From NCBI GenBank assembly GCA_010093605.1, contig MU004183.1, positions 1,364,001 to 1,428,000 of the forward strand: a DNA stretch of 64,000 bases, written 5' to 3'. How positions within the stretch are numbered: the first letter of the stretch is position 1; each line of letters opens with the position of its first letter. Shown piece after piece: positions 48,893 through 56,337 of the stretch. The stretch is from Lophium mytilinum (lineage: Eukaryota). The position numbers and the translations under genes were made by a program. Below the pieces are notes generated by a model. It searched no databases. It saw nothing but the letters and a program-made list of their open reading frames with translations, and had not been told where the DNA came from.

Positions 48893-51708
48893 CTAATACC
48901 GCTCGATAAGCCACACCCTCCTCTCCTTCTCCGGCATGTCCGCCAGCATCTTCTGCTCCACCTTCTTCATGGCCATGAAATCCCATACTAGGCCATTCGC
49001 CATGATCTCCTTTAGATCAGAGTCCTTGTCTAGCGCCTCGAGTGCTTCGTCGATAGTAGTAGGCATACGGCGATGGATGCCGTAATCAGTCTTCAGCTGT
49101 TCCGCCGACATACGGCTTGGATTATCTAGAAAGACAAATGGGGGTCAGCAAAGGCACTCTCCAGACCAAGAGCATACTCGAAAACAACTCACACGGACAA
49201 TCCTTCTCCATGAAAATCTCCGCTCCGCCCTCTTTCAGTCCTAGTAGTCCCGCACCTATCACGGCCGCCATGGCGAGATATATATTCGCCATCCCATCCA
49301 AACATCTGACCTCCCACCGCCCATCACTGACCTTCCGCAACGGCGTCTCACGGTTCTGCGTCCCCCACGCTACCCATGTTCCGCCCGTCCAATGGTCGTC
49401 AACCACGCGGCCGTAGCTCACAGCCTCGGGCATCGTGAAGGCGCAGACGGCTTCCAGGTGCTTGAGCACACCGCCAACGAAGAACGCGAGCTCCTTCTCT
49501 GGTGGGCTAACGGAGATATGAGCGTGAGCCGCAGTGCCGATGCCAGGGTAGGGCTGCGGGTGGAGTGTTGCGCGGAGGCCGTGCGTCGCTGCTATCTGAT
49601 AGATGACTTGACGGGCTTGGATTAGGGTGTCGATGGCAGCGAGGGCGGGAAGAGGTGGAAGCACGAATTCGTATTGCCCGGCCCCAGCCTCGGCGTGGAA
49701 TTGCTGGATAGAGATCCCGATTTCAGCCAGGCTGGTGGCGACTTCGGCGAGGAGGGGGAGTTGCTGCCATTGCTGGGGCGTTAAGGTGCCCCAGGCGTGA
49801 GCGGTTGTGAGAGGAGCGTAAGGGTCGTCTGCATTCTCCGGGTGGCGGGTGAGGAGAGTGACTTCGATTTCGAAGCCGACGAGAGTGGTGATGGAGTGCG
49901 TGGAGGAGAGGTCATCGAGGAGGGTATTAAGGCCTCCGCGGGGGCACTCTTTGATAGGACTTCCGTCTTCGTCTCGCCAAAAGCATAGCACGGTTGCGGA
50001 TGGTAGTGGGTCTTTCTTGTGGGTTCGTCGCAGGGTAGTCAAATCAGGCTCAAGATTTATCTGGCCTGTGGTGTTGACAGCAGGTGTTGAGACATCATTC
50101 TGTAGAGTGCCAGTATTGCCACGGGAGATACCAATTCGCCCGCCCGTCTTGACGAGGCGTTCAAATTCTGCGATTGGCACGATTCGGACTCGCATGGTGG
50201 CCATGTAATCGAGCCATTGAACGTATACAAATTGAATGGCCGAGTTGTCTTGCATGAAGTTTTCAAAAGCCTGGATGTCGTAAACTTTTGCCGGTAGAGG
50301 TGGCTTGGGATGCCACGCGATAGCTTTTTGGTTGGCCTCACCCGTTCCTTTCAAGTCCAAGACTGGAGATGGCTCCTTCAGCTCGTATAGGGCGTTCGCG
50401 TTGTTATAAAGTATATCTTTGGTCATTGAAATTGCTTGAGCAACGGTTAGGTCGTCTCTATTCACATACTCAGACAATACCTGTATATGATCGTCAGTAG
50501 AGTGGACAATGATTGCATATATTCACCATTGCGTTAGAAAGGGTTTTTAGACACGAGGGAATGGATACCTCGTATAGAGCTTCCCGGAACTGCTTATTTG
50601 CCAGCCAATACGTCTCTGGAAACCAGTGTCCGTCGGTTGAGTACAGTAGCTTGCCCCCGGGTACCAGCTCTAGGGATTGTCTTATTGCAGATATTTGGCC
50701 GTCTCTGCTCAACATTGGGAAGATCTCCCCAATATCAAGGAAGACATGACTGAAAACGGTAGCAAGATATCCTGCTTCTCTGGTATACGGATATGAAGAA
50801 TGGAGAAGAACGAAGGGCACAGCTGGGTAGTTTTCGATGAGCGGCTGAAGATAGGCGGGGTTGGACTGCAAGAGATTGATATCGTTGTCCCCAAGGCCAG
50901 TATGAAACTGCAAGGGCTTGGACAGATCCGCACCAGACGTGTGGTCGGAAAGAATCTCCAGAGTCTTCAACACAAGAAAATCATTCAACGCCTTTCTTTC
51001 AATCCTGTACTTCCGTTTTCTGACAGCTCGTTGAACATAGTGCTCGAACGGTTTCGACACTTGTAGCTCCAGGTTGTCATTGTAGTCGGGTTCGACATCC
51101 AGTCCGCTCCGGTAACAAACGACCGTTTTGAAGCCAGCAACGTCAGAATCTTTGATTGCGTCGACGATTGATCGCTCAAACTCTCCTGTAAAGAGGACCC
51201 ATATGTCGGTGAGATATCTTTCTTCTTCCAAATCTACTTCCGAGGCCTTCCGCAGAATGTTCTCCATGAGATACTCTGCAACTGTCTCGATCCTCACGAT
51301 GCGTTTCGTAACAGCTGGAGTGTATTGATCGTGCTCATCATAAGTAAGCACCTGCTCGGCTCCGCCCAATCCGTCATCCATGAGAATGCAGTGAGTTCCA
51401 TGCAAGCATTTTCGGATGAGAGCCTCCTGGTCGTTGTGGAGCCATTCAGCCCGTTTTTTAAGGATCTCATCCCAAGCAGCGTCCTTTGGGCATTCATATA
51501 GTTCTCTCAGCTGCCTCTCGGCTCGAAGGTGTGATAACGACTTGAATGTGTCTTGTAGGGCCCTTCCCTGTGCTTCCGAAGTGATGGATTCGAAGGGATG
51601 AGCTTCCACGTGAGCGGGTAATAGCAAGTTGTGCGCATGATTGTCGATGATAGGGCAACTCTCTACGGCAGCTTTGAGGGGCTCCAACGCCGTTCTGCCG
51701 TCAGCCAT
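48893..51708 (-). CDS. fluG: FluG-like amidohydrolase plus glutamine-synthetase-like fusion protein
   Basis: IIDNHAHNL, QFHTGLGDND and YSTDGHWFPE (amidohydrolase); GFEIE, FHAEAGAGQYEF and WGTQNRETPLR (GS-like). Introns 50568-50481 and 49192-49126. Confidence 0.92.
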
Positions 51709-52168
51709 GGTGAGGGTGAGGTGATGTTGTATGATGGAAACACACGCAGGCTAGGAAAGAGGCGATGAGACCGTGGAGAGCGCAGCTGTTCACATGACTC
51801 AACACGACCTTCGGTAGCCCTTTCGTAACTCTAATTCAAGGCTGATGTTGTTGACCGGTGTGCTTAGTAGAGTTTAGTGATGATGTAGCCTTCAAGCCTC
51901 AGATACCGCGGGGACAGCTCATGTGATCGGAAACGAAACATCCCGAATTTAATTCATGGCACGACGAATCAAAATAGTAGGATAGCAGTTCACTAAAGCA
52001 TTGCTGTCTTGCTTTCAAATACAACTACTACAGCCTGCTCAACATCATACTCTGTAACAGAATACCACTGGTGCATTCGGGCAGGTCTTCAAGTTCAAAA
52101 AAATTGGAGTAGTCCAGGGTGGCTCTCCACCAACCATACCCCCGCTCTCCACACCGTTAAGGCGCAAC

Positions 52169-52180: not shown

Positions 52181-52185
52181 GATAA

Positions 52186-52321
52186 TGGTCAATACGGGGG
52201 TCGAACCCGCGGCCTTGGCGTTAACATACGATATTAGCACCACGCTCTAACCTATGATGAGTTAGGATATGATCGAGATCAAGGTGTGTTGTGATGAGCT
52301 TACCAACTGAGCTAATCGACC
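52186..52321 (-). tRNA. tRNA-Ile(AAU) with two introns: 52-nt spliceosomal-type in the D-loop (52303-52252) and 10-nt canonical at 37/38 (52231-52222)
   Basis: Spliced sequence GGTCGATTAGCTCAGTTG|GTTAGAGCGTGGTGCTAATA|ACGCCAAGGCCGCGGGTTCGACCCCCGTATTGACCA. All four stems pair, the anticodon AAT is at 52235-52233, and the B box GGTTCGACCC is intact. Confidence 0.9.
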
Positions 52322-53263
52322 TGTTGATCTGTTTGATGGAAGACCAAGTAAAAATAACTACTATATAGAATGGGACATCTTCTAGACTTTGGCTATGGTG
52401 AAAGCCCTTCAGTGCAAATTTGCGCTTACCCCCTGGTGGATATTTGACCCACTTCCCCTCCCGAAGCTCGGCCCGCAACTTCTTTGCAGGCGCCTTCGCC
52501 AAACCACCATCATGAAGTACAGCTATTCATCTAGCAGAGACATTGTGGGCTGTCCTGCTGGCTGACTTACAGGGGCGAGCCAGTCTGCGGAGTTGTGTCC
52601 ATCCCAAGTGGCAAAACTCGTGATCAAGAATGACTCTGCACACGACTGAGTCTGCAATACGAAGCTCGCTGGGTATAGATCTGCAGCCAAGCTGAGGGGC
52701 GCAGTAGCATTGCATCTTTCTCTTTGAATACAGCCACACTTCACATGATCTTTTCGTCTTGTGATTTGCCTGATCAAAACGAACTCTATGCCAAGCTCCA
52801 AAGGTAGATGTTCAAGATTCTAAGTCAAGCTCGTATCTCTATTATCAGTACGAAACACCATGGTCAATCTTCCGACAAGAGGTGTAAGCGTACAGATGAC
52901 GAAGTTTTGGTCATCCACCCCTTCCCCAATCTCTGGATCTCCTCTCCGCCATTCCCCCGGATCGTCCAGTAAGCTGCGGCACCGGGACGCGCCGGGGCGA
53001 CTCCGTGGCGCTCAGGAGACAATCCGTAGTCACGCTTTTGACAACGCAGCTCAGCAACTCCGTGCCAGGTATGCCAGCATGCAGCTGGAAAAACATCGTA
53101 CGATAATAATATGCAACTCTTGAAATGGTAGAGTAGTATGTTATATGTATCTGCCCCACAGATTATTTTACTATCTTCAATCTAAATCACATCCTTATAT
53201 TCTTGCAATAATTATTGATTATTCGAACTGTCAATCTCCAAATACCATCGATCACATACCATC

Positions 53264-54822: not shown

Positions 54823-56337
54823 ATGCCTGCGATGCTGGATGATCCGACTGCTGCCATCATCTACCGTACTTCTGGCGAAATGCCATACCCTACCGCGGGG
54901 ACGCCGCTTCCTCTGGACATTATACCCCGCCAGGTCATCCTCAGAGACAGAGTCACAACGGCTACCTTGTTACCTTTCTCTTCGCCGGATCAGGTGCCTG
55001 TGTCGTTGGTAGCATACCTGTCGGACCAACTCAATCGCGAAATCGAAAAGGGCGACACTTATCCCATGATCACCCCGCTACCTCTCGAATCCTTCGGCCC
55101 ATACTGGTTTGGTGTATTCGGTGCTGTTATGCTTCTGGGGGATATACAAAGCCCTGCGCAGCTTCTCGATATGGAGAGACAGGGACGAGACTGGGATAAA
55201 GAATGTCTGGGGAGTTTCTACATCAAGCCAAATTACCCCGGCCGGTCTAGCCACGTCTGCAATGCTGGCTTCATAGTCACAGATGGTGCGCGAAATCGAG
55301 GTGTGGGTAGACTGATGGGAGAATGCTACCTAGATTGGGCTCCGAAACTTGTTGGTAGCCCTCGAAAGTCGTGCAGAACATGATCGCTGATTGATTAGGG
55401 CTACACTTATTCTGTGTTCAACCTTGTCTACGAGACCAACGTTGCATCCTGCCGTATTTGGGACGCTCTTGGCTTCAAGCGTATTGGAAGAGTCAAAGGA
55501 GCTGGAAACCTCAAATCATACCCCGACGAGCCCGTCGATGCGATAATCTACGGTCGAAGTCTTGGAGGTGACGATGATTTTGTTTCTGAGGAGCGATTCG
55601 ACAAAATAAGGTACTATCTCAAATACGACAAATACCCCGATGGCGCCGATCGAGCGGAAAAGAGCCGGCTAAGGAGCGCTTCACTACACTACAGCCTCAT
55701 CCCGGCCTCGGGCGACGAGCCGGAAAAACTGATGCTAAAGGGAAAAGAGGTGATTCCGGACCCTCAAAAGCAGTACGAAATTGCTCGAACCTTTCACTTA
55801 GACAGACACGGGGGAATCAACAAGACTACGGCTGCGATCGCCGAGAAATACCATTGGGTGAGGATCAAGGAGACTGTTAGCCAGGTCATTCGCCATTGTT
55901 CAGAATGCGGCGAACCAAGTAAAGCGGAACCTCCACGACCAGCTGCTTCGGCGCGACCCCAAACTTCGAGACAAGATTCAGCCCCTTCGAAAGCGCAATC
56001 ACCGTCTCCGAGTCAACAGCTTCAGCAGGAGGCTTCCGGGGCAAGCCTCCCAGAGATTGAGCAACAGCTTGAAGCTTACGGGAGTTCTACTTATCAAGTA
56101 CCAGAGCCGGTGTATTATCGAGACGGCGACATGCCGGTTGACCCTCAGCTTATGAACCCTCCTCTCGACCATCCGCCGTCACCCTTCCTTTCGGCGACTC
56201 TGTCAACGCCTGCTGATGGAAGCTCCGCGCAGGACACACCGATGACAGGAACTGGTGAATCTAAGCCTACAATGTCGCATTTGACACAGCAGATGGCCCA
56301 TACTACCACATATAACCCAACGGCAAGAAGGCAATGA
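54823..56337 (+). CDS. SPT10: Spt10-like GNAT acetyltransferase with H2C2 zinc-binding domain
   Basis: GSFYIKPNYPGRSSHVCNAGF, FNLVYETNVAS and H..HGGINKT..YHW..CSEC. Intron 55351-55398. Confidence 0.88.

Follow-up and report, generated by a model that had tools for sequence, protein, structure and literature searches.

A tRNA-Ile(AAU) gene of 136 nt on the minus strand (52321->52186) of the window, i.e. the whole 64,000-nt stretch of DNA analysed here, is interrupted by two inserts, one of which, 52 nt long and located in the D-loop, carries the signals of a spliceosomal intron. The locus is probably a functional nuclear gene for tRNA-Ile(AAU) in a fungus resembling filamentous ascomycetes, whose precursor would contain two kinds of intron and mature by the pathway proposed below (probability about 0.68). 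Comparison with related sequences shows that the exons of the gene are under selection and that its inserts behave like orthologous spliceosomal introns, and maturation of the tRNA therein encoded probably requires the machinery that splices mRNA.

The features of the gene are listed in Table 1. The earlier note on this DNA had described a 52-nt D-loop insert after nucleotide 18 with a GTAAGC donor, a CCTAAC branch and a TAG acceptor, together with a separate 10-nt intron at 37/38, and both were found as described (52303-52252 and 52231-52222, respectively). Its further statement that excision restores a tRNA-Ile(AAU) was confirmed: with both inserts deleted by script, ARAGORN calls tRNA-Ile(aat), and the minimum-energy fold of the spliced form is an exact cloverleaf (-23.6 kcal/mol). 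When the 52 nt alone are deleted, ARAGORN reports a tRNA with the 10-nt intron put at 34/35 and the label Asn(gtt), and the canonical 37/38 placement of the intron reads Ile(AAU). The GTTA of the 10-nt intron is able to pair with the TAAT of the anticodon loop (4/4 bp possible). The 52-nt insert at 18/19 lies outside the canonical 37/38 site, which is occupied by the separate 10-nt insert. Because the 52 extra bases between G18 and G19 block the tRNA core, this insert must be removed.

Table 1 Features of the split tRNA-Ile(AAU) gene and two mRNA introns of the neighbouring gene in the window
Feature	Position	Strand	Remarks
TATATAG (TATA-like)	52361..52367	-	40-46 nt 5' of tRNA position 1; putative function
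Exon 1, 18 nt	52304..52321	-	tRNA positions 1-18; ends ..CAGTTG; acceptor 5' strand, D-stem 5' strand, D-loop start
A box TAGCTCAGTTGG	52314-52303	-	Exon 1 plus first G of 52-nt insert
D-loop insert, 52 nt	52252..52303	-	Between G18 and G19; spliceosomal-type signals
Donor GTAAGC of 52-nt insert	52303-52298	-	
Branch CTAAC of 52-nt insert	52265-52261	-	Branch A 10 nt before insert end
Acceptor TAG of 52-nt insert	52254-52252	-	
Exon 2, 20 nt	52232..52251	-	G19 to A37; remaining D-arm, anticodon stem 5' strand, anticodon AAT
10-nt intron TCGTATGTTA	52222..52231	-	Canonical 37/38 site
Exon 3, 36 nt	52186..52221	-	From A38 to A73 (discriminator); 3' strand of the anticodon stem, variable loop, T-arm with the B box, acceptor 3' strand
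B box GGTTCGACCCC	52207-52197	-	Sole match in 64 kb
T5 runs (two), Pol III terminator-like	52180-52176, 52173-52169	-	Start 6 nt past tRNA end
Neighbouring-gene mRNA intron	49126-49192		67 nt, GTGAGT..CTGAC..TAG; reading frame verified
Neighbouring-gene mRNA intron	50481-50568		88 nt, GTATCC..CTGAC..CAG; reading frame verified

The intact gene is not recognised by tRNA search programs. ARAGORN found 0 tRNA genes in the window and Rfam 0 matches at gathering score, the Rfam tRNA model reaching 13.8 bits on the intact gene against a cut-off of 29, in agreement with the expectation that scanners would miss it. The features of a Pol III type-2 gene are nevertheless present at the sequence level, including an A box, a B box and an oligo-T terminator, and the A box survives the insertion through the first G of the intron, as had been proposed. 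The gene is located in a 1.5-kb spacer between two protein genes, of which the downstream neighbour on the same strand encodes amidohydrolase and glutamine-synthetase catalytic domains and the neighbour on the other side, read from the plus strand, encodes a short-chain dehydrogenase. Elsewhere in the window, an open frame of 312 aa (55399-56337, plus strand) encodes an H2C2 zinc finger and an integrase zinc-binding domain (PF09337, PF17921), with no other retroelement domains in the frame; it is possibly what remains of a retrotransposon, or else a domesticated fragment.

To judge the splice signals against chance, all 127,896 52-mers on both strands of the window were scored for GTAAGY, CTAAC at 6-25 nt from the end and a terminal YAG. 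Only one 52-mer passed, and it is the 52-nt insert. A looser version of the test was passed by three 52-mers of the window and by random 52-mers at a rate of 1.15e-5. In a free scan of the window, the loose splice-signal pattern is not enriched (36 matches versus a shuffle mean of 45), so that the significance of the signals rests on their presence at exactly the boundaries that restore the tRNA, together with their recurrence in relatives. The earlier note had also likened the insert to the mRNA introns of the window in size and signals, and in a comparison with two introns, a small set, this likeness held: the insert measures 52 nt versus 67 and 88 nt for the two verified introns, whose donors, branches and acceptors are given in Table 1, and unverified candidate introns in the window span 43-100 nt. 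An introner or transposon-derived intron would typically recur in many near-identical copies across a genome and have terminal repeats or target duplications; within the 64-kb window, no second copy of the 52-nt insert is present.

Some further properties of the insert were observed. The heptamer CTCATCA occurs in it twice (52292-52298 and 52255-52261, minus strand), one copy right after the donor and the other overlapping the last base of the branch motif, with neither at the insert borders. In addition, the first 10 nt of the insert, GTAAGCTCAT, are similar to exon-1 positions 7-15, TTAGCTCAG. Both resemblances could be due to chance or be the trace of a local duplication, and nothing like them is present in the corresponding insert of the relative L026 described below. 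In the predicted fold of the precursor, CUAACU of the branch region pairs with GGUUAG, the first six bases of exon 2 (52246-52266, minus strand), and the resulting hairpin encloses the 3' splice site. This hairpin is not conserved in L026. The folds of the two precursors, from the window and L026, are no more stable than those of shuffled sequences (z = -0.96 and +0.53), and stability therefore places no structural mark on the insert.

Three related sequences carry an insert at the same position, G18/G19, with a drifting interior. The first, X6, is a 269-nt contig of depth 2 from a public run labelled with another organism, and covers 52185-52321. It differs from the window by 16 substitutions and 7 indels, of which the 14 located substitutions and all 7 indels lie within the two inserts: 12 substitutions and 6 indels in the interior of the D-loop insert, and 2 substitutions and 1 insertion in the 10-nt intron. 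Exons 2 and 3 (56 nt) carry 0 changes, as against 14 substitutions in 49 insert nt (P = 7.4e-6). The remaining 2 of the 16 substitutions fall somewhere within 52291-52321, either in exon 1 or in the first 13 nt of the insert, so that constancy is claimed here for exons 2 and 3 of X6 and not for its exon 1 and donor. The insert still ends in ATAG, and its branch, equally far from the end, is CTAAT (derived by hand). The flanks of X6 are dissimilar to those of the window, and a T5 run is still present directly 3' of the gene.

The second relative was found by a pattern scan of metagenomes, which returned 34 loci: 28 with bacterial-type tRNAs, 5 without a tRNA and 1 relevant locus, L026, for which 868 nt were taken from a 251-kb metagenome contig. 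Compared part by part, its tRNA-Ile(AAU) is identical to that of the window at 71 of 74 nt. Two of the three differing bases, A6>G and T67>C, form a compensatory pair in the acceptor stem, and the third lies in the variable loop; exon 1 equals that of the window save for A6>G, for which T67>C in the opposite strand compensates. L026 has three inserts. The first, of 51 nt (L026 410-460; GTACGT..CTGAT..CAG), is located at G18/G19 as in the window; the second, of 57 nt (GTAAGT..CTAAT..CAG), lies between C25 and G26; the third is an 11-nt intron at 37/38, unrelated to the 10-nt intron of the window. No sequence similarity was found between the 52-nt insert of the window and the L026 gene, inserts included. 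TATATAA is present about 32-38 nt upstream of the L026 gene, and T5 and T7 runs follow it; the T5 runs begin 3-6 nt past the tRNA end in the window and L026.

The three GT-AG inserts, one from the window and two from L026, have a common set of signals, those expected of U2-type spliceosomal introns of the short fungal kind. The upstream boundary carries a 5' splice site of the form GTRNGY (GTAAGC in the window, GTACGT and GTAAGT in L026). A branch CTRAY is located near the 3' end (CTAAC in the window and CTAAT in X6; in L026, CTGAT at 14 nt and CTAAT at 13 nt), and the downstream boundary carries a YAG (TAG in the window, CAG twice in L026). Precise excision restores a sequence called tRNA-Ile(aat) by ARAGORN in the window, and the spliced product of L026 receives the same call, Ile(aat). 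T runs longer than 2 are absent from all three inserts, and T runs of 3-4 are present in both verified introns of the neighbouring gene.

The L026 gene is flanked by a 42-nt direct repeat (L026:1-42 and L026:789-830, 93% identical, 788 nt apart). The gene may therefore belong to a tandem unit of ~790 bp, in which case several copies of the three-insert gene would exist. The 28 bacterial-type loci of the same scan (L001, L003-L009, L011-L013, L015-L025, L028-L033) each carry an intact tRNA of bacterial type, with a GAA anticodon loop, many of them followed by a conserved downstream stretch with AGGTCAGAGC and, in repeated form, TTGCTAACA motifs. These loci have no relation to the gene described here and were caught by the pattern through a chance downstream match. 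For a stricter pattern, neither the prokaryote genome collection nor the viral contigs gave any match (0 in each).

The third relative, X4, is a single air-metagenome contig of 196 nt and depth 2, which is 95-99% alike to the window. Its D-loop insert is retained and departs from that of the window by 1 substitution and a deletion of 2 nt. X4 aligns to 52185-52241 and to 52239-52329, with about 50 unaligned letters between the two pieces; with the 3-nt overlap counted, about 53 letters are inserted at 52239-52241, in the anticodon stem 5' strand of exon 2. Our guess is that these letters are a further GT..AG insert between G28 and G29, at a third site in the tRNA, because the 3-nt overlap of the aligned pieces fits an insertion at G28/G29. 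Other contigs (X3), of putative RNA origin, are identical to the window but end at 51847 and resume at 52507, so that the tRNA is uncovered and they are uninformative on its expression.

Taken together, the frozen exons, the compensated stem change and the drift of inserts and flanks argue for a working gene and make a dead copy unlikely. The functional tRNA-Ile with a spliceosomal-type D-loop intron proposed in the earlier note is thus supported by the comparison with X6 and L026, as far as sequences can speak to function, and the comparison of orthologues yielded an insert site kept in two other organisms with stable exons, the opposite of pseudogene decay.

Four other explanations of the locus were weighed against these data. 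The main variant beside Pol III transcription is a Pol II host, i.e. spliceosomal removal from a longer non-coding or upstream transcript, from which RNase P and RNase Z would free the tRNA. Such a host would dispense with the recruitment of the spliceosome to a Pol III transcript, and it fits the TATA-like element upstream as well as the position of the gene in the 1.5-kb spacer, in the orientation of the downstream amidohydrolase/glutamine-synthetase-like gene. We consider it unlikely, since a Pol III unit is indicated by the T5 runs close to the tRNA end in the window, L026 and X6 and by the A and B boxes, which are intact in all of them, and since the lack of T runs in the GT-AG inserts would be relevant for Pol III only. 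It is also quite improbable that removal is a protein-only process, in which the tRNA endonuclease acts on a bulge-helix-bulge-like fold, or another endonuclease acts with a ligase, and the GT..AG signals are incidental. Introns in the D-arm, the anticodon arm and the T-arm of nuclear tRNA genes are described for Cyanidioschyzon merolae in excerpts of PMC3728597, PMC9602550 and PMC3978253, and the insert of the window reaches 3/4 of the central-helix pairs. However, in a simple test of low power, a full bulge-helix-bulge could not be drawn at the D-loop insert of either the window or L026 (the latter with 2/4 pairs), whereas the 37/38 introns used as controls reached 4/4 and 3/4, and the minimum-energy folds of both precursors are without this motif. 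Moreover, the conserved feature of the inserts in the window, X6 and L026 is the set of signals at fungal spacing and not a fold, and such signals would arise by chance at about 1e-5 per insert.

The rejection of the gene by scanners would be expected of a dead tRNA copy with a 52-bp intron-like insertion, the work being done by intact Ile(AAU) copies elsewhere. This explanation is very unlikely in view of the unchanged exons 2 and 3 of X6 amid diverged inserts and flanks (P as given above), and of L026, in which 71/74 exon bases and a compensated stem are found beside inserts that cannot be aligned to that of the window. The terminator and the upstream TATA-like element are kept as well, as are the branch and acceptor in the window, X6 and L026 and the donor in the window and L026. 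Neither exon decay nor a lost cloverleaf, as expected of a tRNA pseudogene or tRNA-derived repeat, is seen in exons 2 and 3 of X6 or in L026. We regard as least probable of all that no tRNA is made, the locus being a chromatin boundary bound by TFIIIC or Pol III between two divergent genes, or the source of an unspliced tRNA-like RNA. The A and B boxes alone would suffice for a boundary, and the locus does lie between two protein genes, but conservation extends beyond the boxes to all stems and the anticodon, the compensatory change in the acceptor stem makes sense only for a folded tRNA, and neither X6 nor L026 has kept the flanking genes.

Under the preferred reading, a working tRNA-Ile(AAU) gene with two kinds of intron, maturation would proceed in four steps. 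The gene would be transcribed by Pol III, as suggested by the A box, the B box, the upstream TATA-like element and the T5 terminators; the absence of T runs inside the inserts also fits such transcription. The 52-nt insert would then be recognised as a short fungal GT-AG intron and removed by the spliceosome in the nucleus. Only after this removal would the D-loop/T-loop core form, the ends be trimmed and the tRNA be exported, and the 10-nt intron at 37/38 would finally be cut by the tRNA splicing endonuclease and sealed by the tRNA ligase. In yeast, the tRNA splicing endonuclease is located on the mitochondrial surface, and with the same location here the order of the steps, which we infer, would be fixed. 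A counterpoint to this pathway is that the spliceosome is ordinarily recruited in connection with Pol II and the cap, and that a very short first exon, of 18 nt plus leader, on a Pol III transcript would be an unusual substrate for it. The D-loop intron is most likely a tolerated passenger and would have no function of its own.

The related sequences further suggest that the intron is old enough to be common, by position, to other species, and that additional introns of this type arose in the tRNA-Ile gene of relatives. It appears reasonably likely that, in an ascomycete lineage, spliceosomal introns have repeatedly colonised tRNA-Ile(AAU), with sites at G18/G19 and C25/G26 and a probable further one in the anticodon stem, and that the Pol III pre-tRNA passes the spliceosome first. 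Three insertion sites in a 74-nt RNA, with downstream exons starting with GT, suggest reverse splicing into abundant RNAs, and the 52-nt insert would have originated in this way.

Textbooks and recent reviews assign spliceosomal introns to Pol II transcripts and tRNA introns to removal by proteins only; excerpts of two texts from 2025 and 2026 describe tRNA splicing as independent of the spliceosome (PMC12530127, PMC13149111). A conserved spliceosomal-type intron in a tRNA gene under selection would break this separation of Pol II and tRNA intron classes. tRNA is the most abundant product of Pol III. If the preferred reading is true, this tRNA would be the first to rely on two unrelated systems of intron removal, and a class of tRNA genes would exist that current annotation does not see. 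The pre-tRNA would also offer a natural substrate on which to study spliceosome recruitment in the absence of Pol II and a cap. If the locus is the main source of Ile(AAU), the available amount of a major tRNA would depend on the capacity of the spliceosome. In addition, tRNA scanners can silently drop real fungal genes, leading to false gaps in decoding sets.

The earlier note knew of no characterised example of such a gene, and a literature search of incomplete coverage, in which subscription journals were thinly represented, likewise found no tRNA gene with a spliceosomal intron. Among known tRNA introns, the canonical eukaryotic 37/38 introns resemble the 10-nt insert, which is short and can pair with the anticodon loop. 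Unlike them, the 52-nt insert lies at 18/19, a long way from the region in which the eukaryotic endonuclease measures off its cutting positions. Non-canonical tRNA introns of archaea and red algae depend on bulge-helix-bulge folds according to an excerpt of PMC3978253, which also mentions upstream TATA elements of fungal tRNA genes. Examples given in parts of PMC3978253, PMC3728597 and PMC9602550 include nuclear genes of C. merolae, among them a tRNA-Ile(UAU) with three introns, and genes of nucleomorphs. Like these introns, the inserts described here occupy sites outside 37/38 including the D-arm, occur more than once per gene and are missed by scanners. Those introns, however, are recognised by their fold and cleaved by the tRNA endonuclease, whereas the inserts carry GT, CTRAY and YAG at fungal spacing.

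The closest precedents are the introns of lichen rDNA and of U6 snRNA. Spliceosomal introns are present in lichen rDNA, and yeast removes such an intron from Pol I transcripts, as described in a part of PMC8527467; for such introns in the nuclear rDNA of ascomycetes, lichen-forming species among them, Bhattacharya et al. 2000 is cited in PMC8527467 and PMC5855946. Both cases concern fungal introns of spliceosomal type at conserved sites of a structured RNA that is not, or for the tRNA probably not, made by Pol II. The lichen rDNA introns are removed by the host machinery, whereas removal of the tRNA-Ile insert is predicted. The precursors also differ, those of Pol I rRNA being long and slow to assemble and the pre-tRNA measuring about 140 nt with an 18-nt first exon.

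For U6, excerpts of PMC5855946 describe an mRNA-type intron in the Pol III-transcribed gene of S. pombe and up to four introns in fungal U6 genes, cite Tani and Ohshima 1989 and 1991 and Canzler et al. 2016 for work on these introns, and give reverse splicing as their proposed origin. Splicing of the S. pombe U6 intron has been shown experimentally, whereas that of the tRNA-Ile D-loop insert is deduced from its signals. Unlike U6, the tRNA has internal promoters that constrain the insert, and tRNAs are already served by a separate, protein-only splicing system; unlike the tRNA, U6 sits in the catalytic centre of the spliceosome, which would explain its possible capture of introns. As in fungal U6, however, a short GT..branch..AG intron lies within the tRNA-Ile gene, whose non-coding RNA is likewise small, strongly conserved and, in the tRNA case probably, transcribed by Pol III, and in both the intron sequence is otherwise unconserved and the gene family has several independent insertion sites.
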